Of a stretch of 64,000 nt of DNA, positions 18,803 to 60,659 are shown piece after piece. The position numbers and the translations under genes are program-made. The stretch is from Zoogloea sp. (GTDB taxonomy: Bacteria > Pseudomonadota > Gammaproteobacteria > Burkholderiales > Rhodocyclaceae), in the NCBI RefSeq assembly GCF_041915215.1, contig NZ_JAYSBV010000012.1; one strand, given 5' to 3'. A model generated the notes under the pieces. It was not told the DNA's origin. It ran no database searches and was given only the letters and a program-made list of their open reading frames with translations. How positions within the stretch are numbered: position 1 is the first letter of the stretch; every line of letters starts with the position of its first letter.

Positions 18803-19666
18803 ATGATCCGCCCCGCCCTGCGTCCCCTCTCCGCCCTGATCGCCCTCGCCTGTCTGGGCGCCGCCGGCAGCAGCCGTGCCGCCGACGCCCCCGCCGATGC
18901 GCCCGCATCGGCCTGGACGGTGCCGGTGAGTGTGAGTCTGGTGAGCGATTACATCTTCCGGGGCCAGTCCCAGACCTGGGGCAAGCCGGCCCTGCAGCTG
19001 AGCGTGGAAGCCGACCACGCCTCCGGCGCCTATGTGGGCTTTGCCGCCTCCAATGTCTCCAGCCACTGGCTGCCCGGTGCCACTGTGGAAACCGACTTTT
19101 TCGGCGGCTTCCGGGGCAAACTCTCCGAGCCGGTGGGCTACGACGTGGGCCTGATCTACTACGCCTACCCGGGCGCCGACTGGAAGGATTCCTGGTTTGA
19201 TGGCTACAACAAGGGCAACAGCCTCAACACCGCCGAGGCCTATGTCTCGATCAGCTACGACTGGCTGAGCTTCAAGACCGGCCGCACCCTCACCGAATAC
19301 TTTGGCTGGAGCACCAACAATTCCCCGGTAGCGGGTGGCTTCAACGGCAACCCGGCGGCCGGCGTCACCGGCAGCACCCGGGGTTCGTATTTTTATGAAC
19401 TGAACGCCAGCAAGGACGTGGCCGAAGGCTGGAACCTGAGCGGCCAGATCGGGCGCCAGGTGATTGCCCACGCTACCGGGCTGGACATCACCTATTACAA
19501 GCTGGGCCTCACCCGCGCCCTGCCCGACGGCTGGAGCGCCGGAGCCTTCTACTCCGCCTCCAGCCAGCCCAAGGCTTACGACCGCTTCCTGAGCCTGGAC
19601 AACGGCCACTCGGAATCCAACATCGCCCGCAACAAGGTATTCGTGAGTCTGAGCAAGGCGTTCTGA
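18803..19666 (+). CDS. outer-membrane beta-barrel protein (TIGR02001-like conserved hypothetical porin)
   Basis: Signal peptide MIRPALRPLSALIALACLGAAGSSRA. Alternating amphipathic beta strands and a C-terminal aromatic residue (…KAF). RBS AAGGAGA. Confidence 0.55.
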   Translation: MIRPALRPLSALIALACLGAAGSSRAADAPADAPASAWTVPVSVSLVSDYIFRGQSQTWGKPALQLSVEADHASGAYVGFAASNVSSHWLPGATVETDFFGGFRGKLSEPVGYDVGLIYYAYPGADWKDSWFDGYNKGNSLNTAEAYVSISYDWLSFKTGRTLTEYFGWSTNNSPVAGGFNGNPAAGVTGSTRGSYFYELNASKDVAEGWNLSGQIGRQVIAHATGLDITYYKLGLTRALPDGWSAGAFYSASSQPKAYDRFLSLDNGHSESNIARNKVFVSLSKAF

Positions 19667-19710
19667 GCCACTCAACTCAACTCAACTTAACCCAACCCAG
19701 CTCAGCACCG

Positions 19711-19734
19711 CCACGTACCCCTCGGGGTACGTGG
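19711..19734 (+). terminator. perfect 10-bp-stem hairpin (CCACGTACCC-TCGG-GGGTACGTGG) without a U-tract
   Basis: Directly readable inverted repeat downstream of the outer-membrane protein gene. Confidence 0.4.
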
Positions 19735-36446: not shown

Positions 36447-36565
36447 TGCTTTGCACCCTAAAGACTCGGCCCTCCCAGGCCGCTACCACTGGCAAGCCGG
36501 TAATCCGTCCAGAACTCCAACAAAACACAAAAACAAAAAAGTCAAGAGATTTATAGGGCGTTTTC

Positions 36566-38270: not shown

Positions 38271-39644
38271 ATGGCAACGCTTTCTTCCGCCGGCATAGGT
38301 TCGGGACTCAATGTGGAGTCCCTGATTTCAGGCTTGATGCAGATCGAGCGGCAACCGCTGACGAGTCTCCAGACCCAGCAGAGCACCGCCCAATCCAAGA
38401 TTTCGGCCCTCGGGACCATCAAGAGCAATCTGGCTTCGCTCCAGAACGCTGCCAAGGCCCTGACGCCCACCACGCTGCAAACGGCCACCTCGGCCCTGTC
38501 CAACTACACGGCAGCCCTGACCGACACCACCATTGGCAGCGCCAGTGCCACCAGCTCGGCCGTGCCGGGCACCTACAGCATCGAAGTCACCGCCCTCGCC
38601 AACGAGCAGCGCTACCAGCTGGGCAAGTCCTACGCCAGCACCGATGCGGTCATCGATTTCGGTGGCGCGAGCACCAAGACCCTGAGCTTCACCAAAGGCA
38701 GCACCACCGTTAACGTAACCCTGGACACCACCCAGAACACCCTGGGCGGCATCCGTGATGCGATCAACAAGGCCGGCACGGGTCTGAACGCCACCGTGGT
38801 CACCGGCACCGACGGCAAGCAGAACCTCCTGCTTTCGGCCGCCACCGGGGGGACGGCCAACACCGTCAGCATCGGAGGCACGGCCCAGTTCATCGACAGC
38901 AGCAACCCGAGTTCGCCGATTGCCGCCAGCAGTGCCTTCAACCAGACCCAAGCCGCCACCGACGCGGTGGTCAAAGTGCAAGGGGTTTCGATCAGCACTG
39001 CCGGCAACACCATCACCGGCGCGGTGGATGGTGTCACCCTGAACCTCACCAAAACAGGCACCACCACCCTCACCGTGTCCCGGGACACCTCGGCCCTGCA
39101 GACCAAGCTGCAGACCTTGGTGAATTCCTACAACACCCTGAACAGCTCCATCAAAAACCTGAGCGCCTACAACGCCAACACCAAGACCGCAGCCGTCCTG
39201 AACGGCGACTCCACCCTGCGCAGCATCCAGGGCACCCTGCGCAACACCCTGGGCAATGCCTCCGACTCCACCAGCAGCAGCATCAAACAGCTGGCCGATA
39301 TCGGCGTGAGTTTCCAGACCGACGGCAGCCTGAGCCTGGATACTGCCAAGTTCAGCAAGGCCGCTACCACCGATTTTGCCGCGACAGCCAGCGTGATCGC
39401 GTACTACTCCAAGGCCCTCAAGAGTGACGCTACGGCCATGCTGGACACCAATGGCACCCTGACCAACCGAACAACGGGCCTGAACTCCACGGTCAAGAAT
39501 CTGGGCAAGCAGATCGACGCCATGAACACCCGGCTCACCCGCATCGAAAATAACTACCGCAGCCAGTACACAGCCCTGGACAAGGCCATGAGCAGCATGA
39601 GCACCACCAGCAGCTACCTCACCCAACAATTGGCACTGCTCTAA
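38271..39644 (+). CDS. fliD: flagellar filament cap protein FliD (hook-associated protein 2)
   Basis: N-terminal GIGSGLNVESLISGLMQIERQPLTSLQTQQ signature. 457 aa. Confidence 0.85.
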   Translation: MATLSSAGIGSGLNVESLISGLMQIERQPLTSLQTQQSTAQSKISALGTIKSNLASLQNAAKALTPTTLQTATSALSNYTAALTDTTIGSASATSSAVPGTYSIEVTALANEQRYQLGKSYASTDAVIDFGGASTKTLSFTKGSTTVNVTLDTTQNTLGGIRDAINKAGTGLNATVVTGTDGKQNLLLSAATGGTANTVSIGGTAQFIDSSNPSSPIAASSAFNQTQAATDAVVKVQGVSISTAGNTITGAVDGVTLNLTKTGTTTLTVSRDTSALQTKLQTLVNSYNTLNSSIKNLSAYNANTKTAAVLNGDSTLRSIQGTLRNTLGNASDSTSSSIKQLADIGVSFQTDGSLSLDTAKFSKAATTDFAATASVIAYYSKALKSDATAMLDTNGTLTNRTTGLNSTVKNLGKQIDAMNTRLTRIENNYRSQYTALDKAMSSMSTTSSYLTQQLALL

Positions 39645-39669: not shown

Positions 39670-40086
39670 ATGTCCTTTGGCCTAGCCTCCCGCCGCGCAG
39701 CCGCCGCCTATAACGAAGTCAGCGTTGAAACCGGCGTATCCGGTGCAGACCCCCATAAACTCATCCTGATGCTGTTTGAGGGTGCCCTGCTCCAGGTGGG
39801 CAGTGCGGCCATCGCCATGGAAAACCGCGACATCCCGGCCAAGGGCACCGCCATTTCCAAGGCCATCGAGATCATCACCAATGGCCTCAAGATCAGCCTC
39901 GACTTTGAAGCCGGTGGAGAACTGGCCGAACGCCTCGGCGCCCTCTACGATTACATGGCCCAGCGCCTTCTGTACGCCAATCTCCATAACAGCCGGCCCG
40001 CCCTGGACGAGGTCACCCGGCTGCTCACCGATTTGAAAGACGCCTGGGCAGCCATCGGGTCTGCCACGGTGGAGCCCGCCCGCTGA
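39670..40086 (+). CDS. fliS: flagellin-specific chaperone FliS
   Basis: AYNEVSVETGVSGADPHKLILMLFEGAL...LYDYM FliS motifs. Confidence 0.85.
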   Translation: MSFGLASRRAAAAYNEVSVETGVSGADPHKLILMLFEGALLQVGSAAIAMENRDIPAKGTAISKAIEIITNGLKISLDFEAGGELAERLGALYDYMAQRLLYANLHNSRPALDEVTRLLTDLKDAWAAIGSATVEPAR

Positions 40087-40102: not shown

Positions 40103-40432
40103 TTGATGAGTTCCCTCGCCTTGCTCAAAGAGATGAGCCAATACTCCCACCAGATGGTGGATGCCGCCCGCGCCAACGACTGGGATCGTCTCAGCCGGCT
40201 GGAGCGTCAGGTGGCTTCCCTGCGGGATCGTCTGGGGGTGGAAGACGCGCTCAATCTTCCCAACCGTAACCGACGCCTGTCCGATGATGAGCGCCAGCAA
40301 CGGGTCAAGCTGATTAACCGTATTCTCGATGACGACAAAGAGGTCCGGGTGCACACCCAACCCTGGCTCGACAACGTTCGTCAGCTGCTTTCAGGTCGCC
40401 GTACGGATACCTCCCCGTCCGGAGACGCCTAA
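40103..40432 (+). CDS. fliT: FliT-like flagellar chaperone/regulator
   Basis: Small helical protein immediately after fliS. Confidence 0.5.
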   Translation: MMSSLALLKEMSQYSHQMVDAARANDWDRLSRLERQVASLRDRLGVEDALNLPNRNRRLSDDERQQRVKLINRILDDDKEVRVHTQPWLDNVRQLLSGRRTDTSPSGDA

Positions 40433-40462: not shown

Positions 40463-41722
40463 ATGATTCCGGGCGATCTGGCCAGCCGCCTGCGCATGCT
40501 GGGCGAGGCAGGCTTCCTCAGCGGGGAGCCCAGCCTCGCACCACTGGCGCGCATCAAGGCCATTTCAGGCCAGCTCCCCGACTTCACCCCCGGGGAGCGC
40601 ATCATTGCCCACCTGGAAGCGCCCCGCCCGGACAACACCGCCCAGGCTCGCATCGACGGGCGGGAGGTGATTCTGGCCCTCTCCCCTGGCGTCAAGGCCG
40701 GGGACGTGCTTGAACTGGTGGTGACCCATGTGAGCCCCCAGGCTGTGCTAGCCCGGCTCGCCACCAATCCGGCACCACTCCCCCCCACCCCCGGGGAAAC
40801 GATCACCACCCCCCAGACGAGCGGCCCCATCCTGAGCCAGGCCGGACGCCTGATCAGCTATCTGCTCGCTGGCCCACCGGGCCAGGCCCCGGAAGTCACC
40901 CTCTCATCCACCGCCCAACTGCTGAGTGCCCGCAACGACAGCGCCCCCCAGGCCGCCAGCAGCAGCGCCCCGCTGCTCGCCACCCCGCCCGGCGCGCCCC
41001 AGGACGTGCCCCGCCTGGCGGGCCAGCTGGCCCAGGCTTTGGGTGAAAGCGGGCTGTTCTACGAGGCCCATCAGGCCCGCTGGCTGGCAGGCCAGACCCA
41101 AGCCAGCCAACTCCTGCAGGAACCCCAGGGCCGGCTCTCGCCCCTGCTCCAGCTGTTTGGTGGCAAGCTGCCCGATGCGGCCACCCTCAACCAGCTGGTA
41201 CAAGACACCATCCCCAAAACCAGCAGCTCCACCCCCTGGATGCCGGGGGACGGGAGCATGCCCGCTGAAGACACACCGCCCCCCCCGGCCCTGCGCTTCG
41301 TATCTGCCAACGAAAGCGGCCCGGCGGGCATTCCCGAACGGCTGGTGCCCCTGGTGCATCAGCAGTTGGACAGCCTCGCCACCCATCAGGTGAGCTGGCA
41401 GGGACAGATCTGGCCTGGGCAGATGATGGAATGGGAGATCGAAGACCCGGAGACTCAGGAGCGCGAAGCTGGCAATCCGGACGAACCCGCCGCCCACTGG
41501 AACTCCACCCTGCGCCTCACCCTACCCGGTCTGGGCCAGATCGAGGCCCGGCTGCAGCTGACACCCCAGGGCGTCGCCCTGCGCCTGGTGAGCGAGGACG
41601 AAAATACCCGCCAGCAACTCCAGCGTAACGCGGCCAGCCTGGAAGAGGCCCTCGCCGCCGCCAACGTGCCCCTCACCGGTCTGGTGGCCGAAGTCCGCCG
41701 CCGGGGGCTGCTGCGCCTATGA
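40463..41722 (+). CDS. fliK: flagellar hook-length control protein FliK-like
   Basis: Pro/Ala/Gln-rich central region. C-terminal FliK-type domain (TLRLTLPGLGQIEARLQLTPQGVALRLVSED). Confidence 0.6.
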   Translation: MIPGDLASRLRMLGEAGFLSGEPSLAPLARIKAISGQLPDFTPGERIIAHLEAPRPDNTAQARIDGREVILALSPGVKAGDVLELVVTHVSPQAVLARLATNPAPLPPTPGETITTPQTSGPILSQAGRLISYLLAGPPGQAPEVTLSSTAQLLSARNDSAPQAASSSAPLLATPPGAPQDVPRLAGQLAQALGESGLFYEAHQARWLAGQTQASQLLQEPQGRLSPLLQLFGGKLPDAATLNQLVQDTIPKTSSSTPWMPGDGSMPAEDTPPPPALRFVSANESGPAGIPERLVPLVHQQLDSLATHQVSWQGQIWPGQMMEWEIEDPETQEREAGNPDEPAAHWNSTLRLTLPGLGQIEARLQLTPQGVALRLVSEDENTRQQLQRNAASLEEALAAANVPLTGLVAEVRRRGLLRL

Positions 41723-42048
41723 ACAAACCCGACCCCCGCGCCGAAGCCGTCGCCCTGGCCTACACCGCCGGCCAAAGTGCGCCCACAGTAGTGGCCAAGG
41801 GGCGCGGGCTGATGGCGGGCCAGATCATCGCCCGGGCCAAGGAGGCGGGGGTGTATGTGCATGAATCCCCCGAGCTGGTGGCCCTGCTGATGCAGGTGGA
41901 TCTGGACGCCCGGATTCCCCCCGCCCTGTATGTGGCGGTGGCCGAGCTGCTGGCCTGGCTCTACCGGATCGAACAGGGCCAGAGCAGCCCGCCCCCTGAA
42001 TTCAAAACCCCGGTGCCGGAGCCCGAACCCGCCAAACCCGAGGCCTGA
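41719..42048 (+). CDS. FlhB C-terminal-domain-like protein (EscU/YscU/HrcU-family export switch domain, stand-alone)
   Basis: VVAKGRGLMAGQIIARAKEAGVYVHESPELV matches the FlhB cytoplasmic C-domain. 4-nt overlap with the fliK-like gene. Confidence 0.6.
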   Translation: MNKPDPRAEAVALAYTAGQSAPTVVAKGRGLMAGQIIARAKEAGVYVHESPELVALLMQVDLDARIPPALYVAVAELLAWLYRIEQGQSSPPPEFKTPVPEPEPAKPEA

Positions 42049-42054
42049 CCCCGC

Positions 42055-42146
42055 CCGCCGTATCAAATCACGCCGTATCAAATCACGCCGAATCAAAGCA
42101 CGCCGAATCAAAGCACGCCGAATCAAAGGCACGCCGAATCAAAGGC
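42055..42146. repeat. six-copy tandem direct repeat of a 15-16-nt unit CGCCG(T/A)ATCAAA(T/G/GG)CA
   Basis: Read directly: two copies with TATCAAATCA, two with AATCAAAGCA, two with AATCAAAGGCA. Confidence 0.85.
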
Positions 42147-42185
42147 ACGGGGCCCCGCCCACCCGAAGGTGAACGGGGCCCCGTG
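42147..42185. terminator. two copies of the GC palindrome CGGGGCCCCG forming a hairpin between convergent genes (flhB-like and yggX)
   Basis: ACGGGGCCCCGCCCACCCGAAGGTGAACGGGGCCCCGTG. Likely a bidirectional terminator. Confidence 0.45.
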
Positions 42186-42239
42186 CAGATCCGGGCACCC
42201 AAAGGCGCCCTGGATCGGATCTTCAGTTCAGATCAGGGC

Positions 42240-42512
42240 TCAGGCCTGGGGCGGCACGTAGCCGCCGATCTGGTCGGCGCCACCGGCAAAGAAGTAACGA
42301 TCCATCTGCTCGGCCAGGTACTTGCGGGCGCGGGGGTCCATCAGGTTGAGCCGGTTTTCGTTGATCAGCATGGTCTGATGCCGGATCCACTGCTGCCAGG
42401 CTTCCTTGGAAACGTTCTCGAACACCTTCTTGCCCAGCTCACCGGGCAGGGGCGGGAGATCCAGACCTTCGGCCTCGCGGCCGAGCTTCACACAATTGAC
42501 CATCCGTGCCAT
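42240..42512 (-). CDS. yggX: Fe(2+)-trafficking / oxidative-damage protection protein YggX
   Basis: 90 aa, [18 protein letters not shown]...[11 protein letters not shown], typical of YggX. Confidence 0.85.
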
Positions 42513-42618
42513 GTATCACCTCTTCTAATGGAATAGCCGCCGGAAGCGGCAGGGCTTCCGAAGCGGTAGCAAGATTCTAGCCCAAAGCCGGAGCGCCCGA
42601 ACGCTCCGTAAAACCGCG

Positions 42619-44019
42619 CTAGGGCAGGGGTTTCATGAAGATCTTGGAGCGCCGGTTCACGTCGTACATTTCCCGCTTCTGGCGCGGCAGACGCTCGGGG
42701 GCGACCTCATTGAAGCCCCGTTCCCGAAACCAGTGGGCGGTGCGGGTGGTGAGCACAAAGAGCTGCTCCACCCCCATCCGGCGCGCCCGACCTTCGATCC
42801 GTTTGAGGAGCATTTCCCCCAATCCGGAGCGCCGATGTTCGGGAACCACCGCAACGCAGGCCATTTCGGCCAGGTGCTCGGCCATGAAAGGGTAAAGGGC
42901 GGCGCAGCCCACCAGCACCCCGTCGTACTCCACCACGGTGAATAATTCGATCTCGGCCTCCAGCCGCTCGCGGCTGCGCCGCACCAGGGTGCCGTCGGCC
43001 TCCATGGGGGCGATCATGGTGGCCAGGGCGCCGATATCTTCCACCGTCGCTTCCCGCAGGCGGAACAGGGGGTCGCGGGTCAGCACCGTGCCCACTCCCT
43101 GGGGGGTGAAGAATTCGAGCAGCAGCCCGCCGTCCTTGTCCCGGTCGATCAGGTGGGCGCGGCCAACGCCCTGGCGCACCGCCCGAATCGCGCAGGGCAG
43201 GTACAAGTCCAAATCTTCGGTAAGCCCCTGACCGGCCTTGAGCATGGATTCGGCGTCGTCGGCGGTGATGGCCTCGATCAGGCCCCCGTCCTCATCCAGC
43301 AAGCCGGGGGCGTCGCACAGGTAGATCAGCTTTTCGGCCTTGAGGGCCACGGCCACCGCCTCGGCCACCCGCTCCATGCTCATGTTGAAGATTTCACCCG
43401 CAGGCGAAACCCCCAGGGGCGACATCAGCACCACATTCTGCTGATCCAGATCGGCGGCGATTTCTTCGGCGATCACCCGGCGTACCGCGCCGGTATAGCC
43501 GTAATCCACCCCATCCACGATGCCCACCGGCTTGGCGGTGATGAAGTTGCCGCTGGTCACCCGCATGAAGCTGCCCGCCATGGGGGTATTGGGCAGGCCC
43601 TGGGACAGCATGGCCTCCACCTCGATGCGGGTGACGGCCATGGCGGCCTTCACGCATTCGAGGGCGGCTGCATCGGTCACGCGCAGGCCCTGGTGGAAAC
43701 GGGGCTGCAAGCCCCGGCGCGCCAGCTCCGCATCAATCTGGGGGCGGGCCCCATGCACCAGCACCAGGCGCACCCCCAGGGCGGCCAGCAGGTTGCAGTC
43801 GTAGGCCAGGGATTCGGCCAGCTTGCCGGCGGCCACCTCGCCCCCGAAGCCGAGCACGAAGGTCTTGCCCCGGAAGGCGTGGATGTAGGGAGCGGCGGCG
43901 CGCACCCAGGCGACAAAACGTTGGGACAGATCCCCCGGCGGCACCGGGGCGGCATTCACTTGTTGAACAGGGTTCACGGCATTCCTTCGGCAGATCCGGG
44001 TACGGGTACGGGTACGCAC
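42619..44019 (-). CDS. argA: amino-acid N-acetyltransferase (N-acetylglutamate synthase, kinase-like + GNAT domains)
   Basis: HAFRGKTFVLGFGGE...VLVHGARPQID matches the ArgA N-terminus. C-terminal GNAT domain. True start probably internal (GTG/ATG) to the 466-aa ORF. Confidence 0.8.
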   Translation of the reverse strand: MRTRTRTRICRRNAVNPVQQVNAAPVPPGDLSQRFVAWVRAAAPYIHAFRGKTFVLGFGGEVAAGKLAESLAYDCNLLAALGVRLVLVHGARPQIDAELARRGLQPRFHQGLRVTDAAALECVKAAMAVTRIEVEAMLSQGLPNTPMAGSFMRVTSGNFITAKPVGIVDGVDYGYTGAVRRVIAEEIAADLDQQNVVLMSPLGVSPAGEIFNMSMERVAEAVAVALKAEKLIYLCDAPGLLDEDGGLIEAITADDAESMLKAGQGLTEDLDLYLPCAIRAVRQGVGRAHLIDRDKDGGLLLEFFTPQGVGTVLTRDPLFRLREATVEDIGALATMIAPMEADGTLVRRSRERLEAEIELFTVVEYDGVLVGCAALYPFMAEHLAEMACVAVVPEHRRSGLGEMLLKRIEGRARRMGVEQLFVLTTRTAHWFRERGFNEVAPERLPRQKREMYDVNRRSKIFMKPLP

Positions 44020-44128: not shown

Positions 44129-45631
44129 TCATCGTCGCAAGGCCTGCTCCAACCGTTCGACCAGGGTCGTCATCACCTTGATGCGCGCGTAGTACTTGTT
44201 GTCGGCCTCCACCAGGGTCCAGGGGGCGTTCTCGGTGCTGGTGCGATCCATCATGTCGCACACGGCCTGCTCGTAGGCGGGCCATTTTTCCCGGTTGCGC
44301 CAGTCTTCGGCGGTGATCTTGTAGCGCTTGAAGGCGGCTTCTTCCCGGGCCTTGAAGCGGGCGAGCTGCTCGTCAGCGCTGATCGAGAGCCAGAACTTGA
44401 GCACCAGCCCGCCAGCAGCCACGATCTGATCCTCAAAATCGTTGATCTCAGCATAGGCCCGCATCCAGTCGGCTTCCGAGCAGAAGCCTTCCACCCGCTC
44501 CACCAGCACCCGGCCATACCAGGAGCGATCAAAAATCGCCACCTTGCCCCGGCGCGGCACCTTGCGCCAGAAGCGCCACAGATAGGGCTGGGCACGCTCC
44601 TCCTCGGTGGGCGCGGCGATGGGCATCACATGGTACTGGCGCGCATCCAGGGCCTGGGTCACGCGCCGGATGGTACCGCCCTTGCCTGCAGCATCCATGC
44701 CTTCGAACACCAGCACCAGGCTGCGCTTGGCAAATTCGGGGCTGCGCACCGCCAGGGCGAGGCGTCCCTGGAGCTTTTCCAGCTGGCGCTCGTAGTCTTT
44801 TTTGTCCAGGGGGCGGTTGAGCACCAGCGCATTCAGCAGATTGCGTCCGTCGGCGCTCGGGGCCAGGGGCGCGGCGCTCTGGCGCGGCAGAAAGCCCTTG
44901 CGCTGCTGCTCCAGGCGGCCGTGCAAGGCATCCACCACGGTGCGCGCCACCTGCACCGCCCGGTAACGGGGGTCGGAACCATCCACGATCACCCAGGGGG
45001 CGTGGCCGGTGCTGGTGCGGCGCAGCACATGCTCGGCCACTTTCCGGTAGCGGTCGTAGTTGTGATAGTAGGCCCAGTCTTCGTCCCCCACCCGCCAGCG
45101 GGTGTCCGGGTCGGCCTCCAGGGCCTTGAGGCGCTGCTTCTGGCCATCCCGGGAGAGGTGGAACCACAGCTTGATGAGCACCACTCCTTCGGCGGCCAGC
45201 ATGGCTTCGAAGCGATTGAACTCGGACAGGCGCTGATCCAGCCCGTCCTTGCGCAGCCGCCCTTCGGCCCGCTCGGCGAGGGGGTCGGAATACCAGTTGC
45301 CAAAAAATACCCCGATCTTGCCCCGGGGCGGCAGGGCGTGCCAGAAACGCCACAACAGGGGGCGGGCGCGGGCCTCGTCGGTGGCGCGGTCGAAGGCATG
45401 GACGTCGATATGGCGCGGGTCCATCCACTCGTTGAGCAGATTGACGGTTTCACCCCGCCCGGCGCCGTCGATGCCGTTGATGAGGATCACCGCCGCAAAG
45501 GCACGGTTTTCCAGCAGCTCAAACTGGGCCTCCAGCAGGGCGGTGCGCAGGCCCGGCACCAGGGCTTCGTACTCGGCCTTGGCCAGCTTGTGGCCCAGCT
45601 CGGCAGATTCAAACATCGGCATCCCCCGCAA
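44129..45631 (-). CDS. two-domain polyphosphate kinase 2 (polyphosphate:AMP/ADP phosphotransferase type)
   Basis: Two PPK2 P-loops: GIDGAGRGET and GMDAAGKGGT. About 500 aa. Confidence 0.8.
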   Translation of the reverse strand: MRGMPMFESAELGHKLAKAEYEALVPGLRTALLEAQFELLENRAFAAVILINGIDGAGRGETVNLLNEWMDPRHIDVHAFDRATDEARARPLLWRFWHALPPRGKIGVFFGNWYSDPLAERAEGRLRKDGLDQRLSEFNRFEAMLAAEGVVLIKLWFHLSRDGQKQRLKALEADPDTRWRVGDEDWAYYHNYDRYRKVAEHVLRRTSTGHAPWVIVDGSDPRYRAVQVARTVVDALHGRLEQQRKGFLPRQSAAPLAPSADGRNLLNALVLNRPLDKKDYERQLEKLQGRLALAVRSPEFAKRSLVLVFEGMDAAGKGGTIRRVTQALDARQYHVMPIAAPTEEERAQPYLWRFWRKVPRRGKVAIFDRSWYGRVLVERVEGFCSEADWMRAYAEINDFEDQIVAAGGLVLKFWLSISADEQLARFKAREEAAFKRYKITAEDWRNREKWPAYEQAVCDMMDRTSTENAPWTLVEADNKYYARIKVMTTLVERLEQALRR

Positions 45632-58981: not shown

Positions 58982-60659
58982 TCTGCCCGATCTGCTCAAA
59001 ACTCAAGCCAAAGCGGGCCAGATACTTGCGCAGGCGGTCTGCATCATTGGGCTGCTTGCGCCCCTGCCGGGATACCGCAAACAAGTGGCGCCCGGCCTCC
59101 GAGAGGCTGGATGCCCGGGCGCAGACCTCCACCACCGCCCGCAGCTGGACTTGATCGAACACATCCAGCGCCGCCCAGCCCCTTTCCCCCAGCAGCGCAA
59201 TCATGGGATCGACGGCGCCCCCATCGACATCGAGAACCTTCTCCCCTTCTCCGCAGGCTGCAGGGTGCCACGTGGCCTGGAGCCGCCCAATCTCTTCTTC
59301 CACCCCGGCCTCGGTGATCCGCCCGGCGTTCGCCAGGGTCGCCATGCGGGTAAGCGAGGCGCCCAGCTCCCGGAAGTTACCCCGCCAGCAGGCCTCCGGC
59401 CCGGTGGCAAACGCCAAGTAGCGGCGCCGGGCTTCGGCGTTAAAGCGCACCTGCTCGCCGTACTCCCGGGCATGGCGGGCCAGTTCAAAATCCAGATTCG
59501 GCTCGATGTCCTCACGCCGCCCGGCCAAACCCGGGAGTTGGAAAGTCCAGAGGTTGATGCGCGCAAACAGATCTTCCCGAAACAGCCCTTCACTCACCCG
59601 CTGCCGCAAATCCCGATGGGTGCCGGCGATCAGCTGAAAATCGCTCTCCACCTCCCGATCTGAACCAAAGGGGAAGAAACGTTTCTCCTCGATGGCCTTG
59701 AGCAACATGGCCTGCTCATCCAGCCCCAGTTCGCCGATTTCATCCAGAAAGAGCACGCCCCCATGGGCCGCCCGCAGCAGCCCGGCCCGCTCCCCAAGGG
59801 CCCCCGTAAAAGCCCCCTTCACATGGCCAAACAGGGTGGACATGGCGGCATCGCCCCGCAGGGTGGCGCAATTCACCTCCACAAAACGCCCTTCCAGGCG
59901 CTGATGCTGGGCCTTGAGCGTGTGGATGCGTCGGGCCAGAAAAGACTTGCCCGCGCCCGTCGGCCCCACCAACAGCATGGGCGCCCGGGAACGCCCTGCC
60001 ACCCGCTCAATCTGCTCGATCATCCGGTTAAAGGGCTCGTTTCGGGTCGCGATGCCCGCCTTCAGGAAGCTCAGGTTATCGGCCTGCTCCCGGGCAAAAC
60101 GCTGGGCGATCTGGTCGTAGCGCGACAAATCCAGGTCGATGATGGCATGCCCACCCACGGTTTTGGAGACCTCCTCCTGACGTGGCGGGAAAGTCTGGAT
60201 CAGACGCGCCGGCAGATAACGGGCCTCCGTCAGCAAAAACCAGCAGATCTGGGCCACATGGGTGCCGGTGGTGATGTGCACCAGATAATCCTCGGCCTCG
60301 GGCGCAAAGGAATAGGCCCGGGTGAAATCATGCAGCCGGGTGTAAACCTCTTCAAAATCCCAGGGGTCATGCAGATCCAGGGCATGGAGCACCACCTCCA
60401 CATGGGGTGCCAGCAGCGCAATATCCGCCCGCACCCGCGCCGCCAGCCCCAGGCTGGCCGGAGCATGGATCAAATCCAGTCGATCCACCGGCAAATCCGG
60501 CTGCAGGCAAAGCCCCACCGTAGGACGCCACTTGCCAAAGCGCCTCCCCTTGCGCCCCATGAAATCCAACTGGGTGCCCACAAAGCCGATAACCACCCGC
60601 TTCTTGCCCCCAGCCGGGATCAGCCGCCCATCCACGTCCATGTCCATGCTCACACTCAT
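58959..60659 (-). CDS. rtcR: sigma-54-dependent transcriptional regulator RtcR (CARF + AAA+ sigma-54 activator)
   Basis: Near-colinear match to E. coli RtcR (FGFVGT...KWRP, HNPWDFEEVY, IHITTGTHVAQICWFLL, GAFVEVNCATLRGD, FLDEIGELG, DADRLRKYLARFGL). Confidence 0.9.
   Translation of the reverse strand: MSVSMDMDVDGRLIPAGGKKRVVIGFVGTQLDFMGRKGRRFGKWRPTVGLCLQPDLPVDRLDLIHAPASLGLAARVRADIALLAPHVEVVLHALDLHDPWDFEEVYTRLHDFTRAYSFAPEAEDYLVHITTGTHVAQICWFLLTEARYLPARLIQTFPPRQEEVSKTVGGHAIIDLDLSRYDQIAQRFAREQADNLSFLKAGIATRNEPFNRMIEQIERVAGRSRAPMLLVGPTGAGKSFLARRIHTLKAQHQRLEGRFVEVNCATLRGDAAMSTLFGHVKGAFTGALGERAGLLRAAHGGVLFLDEIGELGLDEQAMLLKAIEEKRFFPFGSDREVESDFQLIAGTHRDLRQRVSEGLFREDLFARINLWTFQLPGLAGRREDIEPNLDFELARHAREYGEQVRFNAEARRRYLAFATGPEACWRGNFRELGASLTRMATLANAGRITEAGVEEEIGRLQATWHPAACGEGEKVLDVDGGAVDPMIALLGERGWAALDVFDQVQLRAVVEVCARASSLSEAGRHLFAVSRQGRKQPNDADRLRKYLARFGLSFEQIGQIKPLRSG

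Follow-up and report, generated by a model that had tools for sequence, protein, structure and literature searches.

A strain-variable intergenic minisatellite beside a predicted yggX terminator in one Zoogloea species

Simple sequence repeats form phase-variable contingency loci in Neisseria, Haemophilus, and Campylobacter, where they lie in promoters or reading frames and changes in unit number switch expression. REP elements, another kind of bacterial repeat, usually sit between convergent genes near GC-rich palindromes. REP, BIME, and ERIC sequences are palindromic and dispersed in tens to hundreds of copies. The locus described here belongs to a 64-kb stretch of Zoogloea DNA, the whole of which was analyzed and is termed the window. 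Its array resembles contingency loci in being apparently slippage-prone with a high mutation rate, and REP/BIME/ERIC sequences in its intergenic position between convergent genes and its tie to a GC-rich palindrome. Unlike the former, it lies outside coding sequence, 3′ of both neighboring genes; unlike the latter, its unit is non-palindromic and occupies one locus.

The array has the defining features of the bacterial intergenic VNTRs (minisatellites) used in MLVA typing: a short unit repeated head to tail in noncoding DNA at a single locus, with whole-unit differences among close strains and unit variants shuffled between alleles. For the Wolbachia VNTR-105 and VNTR-141 loci, which likewise adjoin hairpins as a plausible slippage trigger, the variation has been ascribed to slipped-strand mispairing (PMC3287509). 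Judging from the names of the Wolbachia loci, the Zoogloea unit of 15 or 16 nt is shorter. MLVA schemes for Xanthomonas are a further case of such VNTR typing (PMC4045669, PMC6459536). The Zoogloea array differs from MLVA loci in coming from an uncultured activated-sludge community rather than a typed pathogen, and in a unit that apparently originated in a terminator's tail and foot.

The palindrome next to the array resembles the Rho-independent terminators found between convergent genes, having a 19-bp GC-rich stem capped by a UUCG tetraloop and, on the yggX strand, a T-rich tail. At the same place, related species carry a simpler GGCCCCG hairpin. The Zoogloea tail, CCUUUGAUU, is interrupted instead of being a clean U-run, and is itself part of the repeat unit. 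Bidirectional terminators differ in a further respect: the flagellar-operon strand of the Zoogloea structure has no U-tract, so it is not bidirectional by that criterion.

The array and its gene context

The original prediction, made from the window alone, described a six-copy direct repeat of 15–16 nt, composed of three same-sequence pairs and starting 7 nt past the stop of an FlhB-C-like gene. This was confirmed at 42056–42147 (Table 1), and the head-to-tail units fall within the range of about 10–100 bp that defines VNTRs and minisatellites. Tandem Repeats Finder reported the array at 42056–42149, with a period of 15, 6.1 copies, 96% matches, and a score of 142, the highest in the 64 kb. 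The runner-up, with a score of 67, was an in-frame 21-nt (7-codon) tandem duplication within fliD at 39212–39255 (CACCCTGCGCAACACCCAGGG, 2.1 copies). The last three nucleotides of the array (GCA) double as the foot of the hairpin, and the final unit abuts CGGGGCCCCG-CCCACCCGAAGGTGAA-CGGGGCCCCG without a spacer (sequence 42040–42190).

The FlhB-like gene is the last of a fliD-fliS-fliT-fliK-like cluster and ends with a TGA at 42046–42048; yggX is convergent with it. In exact-sequence look-ups, FliD corresponded to WP_374489723.1 (Zoogloea sp.) and the FlhB-like protein to WP_374489727.1 (Zoogloea). Many of the related contigs originated from activated-sludge metagenomes. On the 5′ side of the fliD cluster, an A-rich tract of the CAAAAAAA type and about 23 nt (36518–36540) is odd in a sequence of roughly 65% GC.

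Table 1. Features of the window discussed in the text (positions from the first nucleotide of the 64-kb stretch)
Feature	Position	Strand	Sequence or basis
Gcw_chp (PF09694) gene	18803-19666	+	TGA precedes pentamer repeat
fliD	38271-39644	+	
fliS	39670-40086	+	
fliT	40103-40432	+	
Flg_hook (FliK-like) gene	40463-41722	+	
FlhB-C-terminal-like gene	41719-42048	+	109 aa, EscU/YscU/HrcU family; ORF and Pfam PF01312 Bac_export_2
Spacer, stop codon to first unit	42049-42055	+	CCCCGCC, 7 nt
Array units 1 and 2	42056-42070, 42071-42085		CGCCGTATCAAATCA each
Array units 3 and 4	42086-42100, 42101-42115		CGCCGAATCAAAGCA each
Array units 5 and 6	42116-42131, 42132-42147		CGCCGAATCAAAGGCA each
T-rich tail	42136-42144	-	CCTTTGATT, directly 3′ of main hairpin; terminator scan
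Main hairpin (predicted)	42145-42186	-	19 pairs (15 GC), 4-nt UUCG loop; terminator scan
Second hairpin (predicted)	42188-42216	-	GATCCGGGCACCCAAAGGCGCCCTGGATC on the plus strand; between yggX stop and main hairpin
yggX	42240-42512	-	90 aa, Fe2+-trafficking family; ORF and PF04362 Iron_traffic
argA-like	42619-44019	-	
ppk2	44129-45631	-	

The 12-nt core of the unit, CGCCGWATCAAA, was matched six times in the window with at most one mismatch, compared with 0.44 matches expected; all six matches were inside the array, and none of 100 shuffles reached this number. The full 15-mer, with up to three mismatches allowed, gave four extra scattered matches in the window, which is the chance level. Six near-identical direct repeats with a constant core would suit an iteron-like or operator-like series of sites bound by a regulatory or nucleoid protein, and protein-binding sites had been among the suggestions of the original prediction. 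We regard this reading as very unlikely. The core had no further copy in the window or in the fetched loci of relatives, and with a period of 15/16 bp neighboring units do not face the same side of the helix. The array lies 3′ of both genes in a region with no promoter-like site, and neither a rep gene nor a promoter was found near it. The number of units varies freely between 2 and 6 among strains, and sister species do without the array. The likeness of the unit to the sigma-28 −10 box was too weak, no unit being among the one-mismatch matches.

A sigma-28 promoter array was rejected on similar details. Although the unit (GCCGAATC / GCCGTATC) is reminiscent of the −10 box GCCGATAA, three of the eight positions are mismatched, and CAAA and GCCG would be separated by 4 or 19 nt, not 15. 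Exact matches to this sigma-28 (FliA) consensus in the window occurred only at 60076–60083 (minus strand) and 60585–60592 (plus strand). The two lie about 500 nt apart on opposite strands, and may mark divergent flagellar or chemotaxis promoters.

A coding role was also considered. The FlhB-like frame stays open for 70 codons past its TGA (42046–42258), and the 15-nt units would read PYQIT/PNQST; such a translation would extend the proline-rich C-terminal tail of the protein. A coding extension was rejected, as none of the strain sequences found has lost the stop and units of 16 nt shift the reading frame. The open frame is probably coincidental. Antisense and overlapping ORFs running through the array were set aside as the usual artefacts of high-GC sequence. 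As plus-strand RNA, the array alone folds weakly (−11.4 kcal/mol over 96 nt). Rfam 15 gave no match, either in the gap (E ≤ 1) or, at the gathering score, in the window as a whole.

Copy-number variation among strains

Contigs bearing the gap between the FlhB-like gene and yggX were collected through exact-protein look-ups with YggX, the FlhB-like protein, and two of its cluster mates in NCBI, ENA, and Logan assemblies. Thirty-three independent contigs carry the gap and are 96–100% identical to the window across the aligned kilobases. Comparison of the copy number among strains, which the original prediction had put forward as a check, yielded 2, 3, 4, 5, or 6 units in these contigs and the window, and at least 14 alleles. 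For the description of alleles, each unit was given a code for the base at position 6 (T or A) and for its ending (t = TCA, g = GCA, G = GGCA; Table 2). The window allele, with six units, is the longest of those seen.

Table 2. Alleles of the array, with units listed from the FlhB-like gene toward the hairpin
Copies	Allele	Sequences
2	Tt TG	L112, L115
3	Tt Ag TG	6 contigs
3	Tt Tt TG	5 contigs
3	Tt Ag AG	L006
3	two CACCG variants	L008; L118/L121
4	Tt Ag Tt TG	6 contigs
4	Tt At Ag TG	L004
5	five different alleles	L002, L009, L014, L106, L111
6	Tt-Tt-Ag-Ag-AG-AG	window, L012, L013, L015, L016

All length differences corresponded to whole units, and the left spacer and the hairpin remained constant. 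The gap measured 141/142, 157, 167, 172, or 188 nt, and about 125 nt in the two-copy allele. This allele is also the exception to an otherwise invariant spacer before the first unit, which reads CCCCGCT there. A Tt first unit and a GG-type last unit were common to all alleles; the constancy of these two units could reflect selection on the terminator tail and not mere edge stability. The locus thereby shows within-species differences in copy number, in whole-unit steps between conserved flanks, as is characteristic of VNTRs and minisatellites.

The flanking SNP haplotypes were compared across about 670 nt. One haplotype carried three alleles, namely a 4-copy allele (L001, L103, L105, L107) and two distinct 5-copy alleles (L106, L111). 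The 5-copy sequence L014 had no difference from the 6-copy window over 337 nt on the upstream side of the array, and covers just 23 nt downstream. Conversely, the allele Tt-Ag-TG was found on at least three flanking haplotypes. Since the same haplotype occurs with differing copy numbers, the array changes faster than point substitutions accumulate in its flanks. Intermediates can be arranged in a step-wise series, from Tt-Ag-AG (L006, three units) through Tt-Ag-Ag-AG-AG (L014, five) to Tt-Tt-Ag-Ag-AG-AG (window, six). The suggestion that the array grew by step-wise duplication and varies in length in a VNTR-like manner through slipped strands is thus strongly supported by near-identical strains with 2–6 units, whole-unit steps, and intermediates.

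The copy-number differences might be artefacts of short-read metagenome assembly, given that most of the contigs are short and some had low coverage (1.1x for L004 and 0.5x for L121). The recurrence of alleles across independent samples and assemblers leaves only a minimal chance for this: the 6-copy allele was obtained in 5 sequences, Tt-Ag-Tt-TG in 6, Tt-Tt-TG in 5, and Tt-Ag-TG in 6. The array is at most 97 nt long and should be spannable by single 150-nt reads. No allele has three identical consecutive units, an arrangement that would be expected to confuse a 31-mer graph.

A second strain-variable repeat in the window, at 19664–19733, has the same layout as the main array, with a stop codon followed by a short tandem repeat and a terminator hairpin. 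Downstream of the Gcw_chp gene, pentamers at 19670–19704 (ACTCA three times, ACTTA, ACCCA twice, and GCTCA) precede the hairpin CCACGTACCCCTCGGGGTACGTGG. Strains had the alleles (ACTCA)3/(GCTCA)1, (ACTCA)3/(GCTCA)2, and (ACTCA)2/(GCTCA)2. This locus is an independent second case, and supports the view that 3′ spacers of such a kind tolerate slippage.

One locus in one species

Neither the array unit nor its core, the latter with at most one mismatch, had a copy elsewhere in the 64-kb window. The whole gap, compared with the window by BLAST, found nothing above 13 nt elsewhere, and no mobile-element or MITE signature. We then searched 185,579 species genomes, one per species, for the dimer CGCCGWATMAAA-N3-4-CGCCGWATMAAA. 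Five matches were returned, in Armatimonadales, Planctomycetaceae, Cyanobacteriota, Synergistaceae, and Terracidiphilus; all were A-rich repeats of two or three copies, unrelated and in different settings, and none was a related array. From the source species there was no match, and it is possibly absent from the collection, so that the scan speaks for other species and is silent on dispersal within its genome.

A local cluster of a dispersed REP/BIME-like intergenic family would fit the setting, as the array is intergenic between convergent genes and adjoins a GC-rich palindrome. The sequence itself makes this highly improbable: the unit is not an imperfect palindrome, and the 64 kb holds no other copy of it or of the hairpin arm CGGGGCCCCG; the dimer scan of the species genomes found no related array. 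An ordinary REP element, spread genome-wide and constant in copy number, was the outcome that the original prediction had named as its refutation. The window, the loci of relatives, and the 185,579 species genomes gave no sign of it. Within this range, the array occupies one defined locus, as VNTRs do.

A protein-based scan of 241 million metagenome records provided 80 loci encoding relatives of the FlhB-like protein. Two of these, at 98% identity, represent the same species, and one of the two (L022) reaches the gap and has a 4-copy array. The array was absent from the about 80 orthologous loci of related species. In 27 loci of relatives, with FlhB-like proteins 69–85% and YggX 86–92% identical, the convergent gene pair was kept and none had the array. 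We infer that the array is a recent acquisition of one species-level lineage, because relatives with the conserved gene pair lack it. The idea of a 3′-UTR element of the late flagellar operon lost its support in the same comparison, relatives with the same gene order being entirely without the array.

The computed gaps between the FlhB-like gene and yggX in relatives were −22 (an apparent overlap), 12–17, 31–34, or 66–100 nt. The longer ones contain one hairpin with a GGCCCCG core, preceded by an A-tract and followed by a T-tract on the minus strand, as exemplified by CCAAAACGCCGAAGGCCCCG-CAAA-CCGGGGCCTTCGGCATTG in L027. The value of −22 nt, calculated from stop to stop, was found in several relatives (L026, L029, L030, L032, L035, L036, L041, and L042). 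It would mean that the FlhB-like and yggX frames run into each other at their 3′ ends and that no terminator separates them.

The predicted yggX terminator and the origin of the array

The original prediction saw a duplicated GC palindrome after the array. This was not borne out. The decamer CGGGGCCCCG is present exactly twice in the window, at 42148–42157 and 42174–42183, and the two copies are the paired arms of a single 19-bp hairpin that lies 53 nt 3′ of the yggX stop. The hairpin is fully paired as minus-strand RNA alone, GCACGGGGCCCCGUUCACC-UUCG-GGUGGGCGGGGCCCCGUGC; its G-U pairs become C-A mismatches on the plus strand, and the folding energies are −44.1 and −37.8 kcal/mol, respectively. 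The second hairpin showed the same asymmetry (−22.7 kcal/mol as minus-strand and −18.3 kcal/mol as plus-strand RNA). The main hairpin was kept in all strain sequences, and the hairpin-proximal repeat unit, which is of the GG type in every allele seen, forms its T-rich tail.

All six terminator-like sites returned by a scan of positions 41000–43000 were on the minus strand; the plus strand had none. The plus-strand sequence past the stem, CAGATCCGGG, has no U-tract, and does not present the features of a terminator of the flagellar operon. With terminator-like sites on the minus strand only and no U-tract on the plus strand, these structures would therefore serve the yggX transcript. The features by which Rho-independent terminators are recognized in sequence, i.e., a GC-rich stem-loop and a U-rich tract 3′ of the stop, are all present for yggX. 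We assign the main hairpin and its tail as the predicted intrinsic (Rho-independent) terminator of this gene, because the hairpin is more stable in minus-strand RNA and the T-rich tract occurs on that strand alone. By these sequence features, the palindrome beside the array is an ordinary predicted intrinsic terminator.

In the lineage of L002, L011, L112, and L115, the second hairpin was remodeled through 10 substitutions and one indel within about 30 nt. It still folds, around a GGCGCC core, and the flanking genes are about 98–99% identical there. The replacement may be a small recombination patch or compensatory remodeling.

In another reading, unit number would tune the 3′ ends of transcripts, by altering termination and read-through (paired neighboring units could act as back-up mini-terminators for yggX) or the length and stability of the flagellar mRNA 3′ UTR, with contingency-like differences in expression. 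The minus-strand segment GGCGUGCC is self-complementary through G-U pairs, and two GG-type units fold at −12.2 kcal/mol ahead of UUUGAUU (scan site 42149–42130), which may influence termination to some degree. There is no canonical plus-strand terminator, so plus-strand transcripts may enter the array and the hairpins, and the array is hypervariable among strains. Despite these features, a tunable module of this kind appears unlikely. The hairpins of other unit pairs are weak and allele-dependent (−5.3 kcal/mol for TCA units and −6.7 kcal/mol for GCA units), and the commonest alleles (Tt-Ag-TG and Tt-Tt-TG) lack adjacent GG-type units, the sole appreciably stable pair. The main hairpin and its tail are invariant and should already terminate transcription. 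Relatives without the array cope with gaps from −22 (the apparent overlap) to 100 nt. Known contingency loci lie in promoters or 5′ coding regions; this array follows the stop codon, 3′ of both genes, with no promoter-like site.

An extended form of the proposal, in which the array would be a copy-number-tuned buffer at the convergent transcription junction and a contingency locus acting at the 3′ end, strikes us as distinctly improbable. If it were true, each unit would add a weak minus-strand hairpin and a U-rich tract and would lengthen the 3′ UTR of the flagellar operon. Read-through between the late flagellar operon and yggX would then vary among sludge strains of Zoogloea, in a way both heritable and reversible, with possible effects on the balance of motility and floc formation.

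We consider it likely that the array is a young, single-locus slippage VNTR of one Zoogloea species, residing in a noncoding spacer between convergent genes, with copy-number changes that are probably neutral. Single units would be gained and lost via slipped-strand mispairing during replication or repair, with slippage taking place between identical neighboring units. The adjoining, very stable 19-bp hairpin (−44 kcal/mol) probably promotes this process. The position would be permissive for length change, since it lies past the predicted yggX terminator and, for the flagellar operon, in the 3′ region that is not translated. Most likely, the extra units have no sequence-specific function.

The unit itself may have arisen through duplication of the foot and tail of an ancestral terminator (A-tract plus stem foot), followed by expansion. 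Where the last unit meets the hairpin, the sequence CGCCGAATCAAAGGCACG-GGGCCCCG can be aligned to CGCCCACCCAAAAGCACGAAGGCCCCG, the A-tract and stem foot of the relative L040, and only 6 of 1000 shuffles scored as well. The corresponding alignment of L027 is CAAA--ACGCCGAA, with 20–66 of 1000 shuffles as good. Against relatives other than L040 and L027, the scores were no better than those of shuffles. The minus-strand form of the unit, UUCGGCGUGCUUUGA, is similar to the 3′ end of the stem together with the U-tract in the terminators of these relatives (UUCGGCG-UUUUGG; UUCG-UGCUUUUGG). On about 25 nt of alignment, the A-tract and stem foot of an ancestral terminator appear to be the source of the unit.

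The array challenges no current idea, and a regulatory role is not indicated; the only mildly unusual point appears to be the recruitment of the repeat unit from the terminator's own tail. It would provide an example of the birth of a minisatellite from the tail and foot of an intrinsic terminator, expanding beside a strong hairpin. Its practical value is modest. With at least 14 alleles within about 100 bp, which a single read or a small amplicon can cover, the array is a ready marker for telling apart strains of one Zoogloea species at high resolution in wastewater metagenomes.
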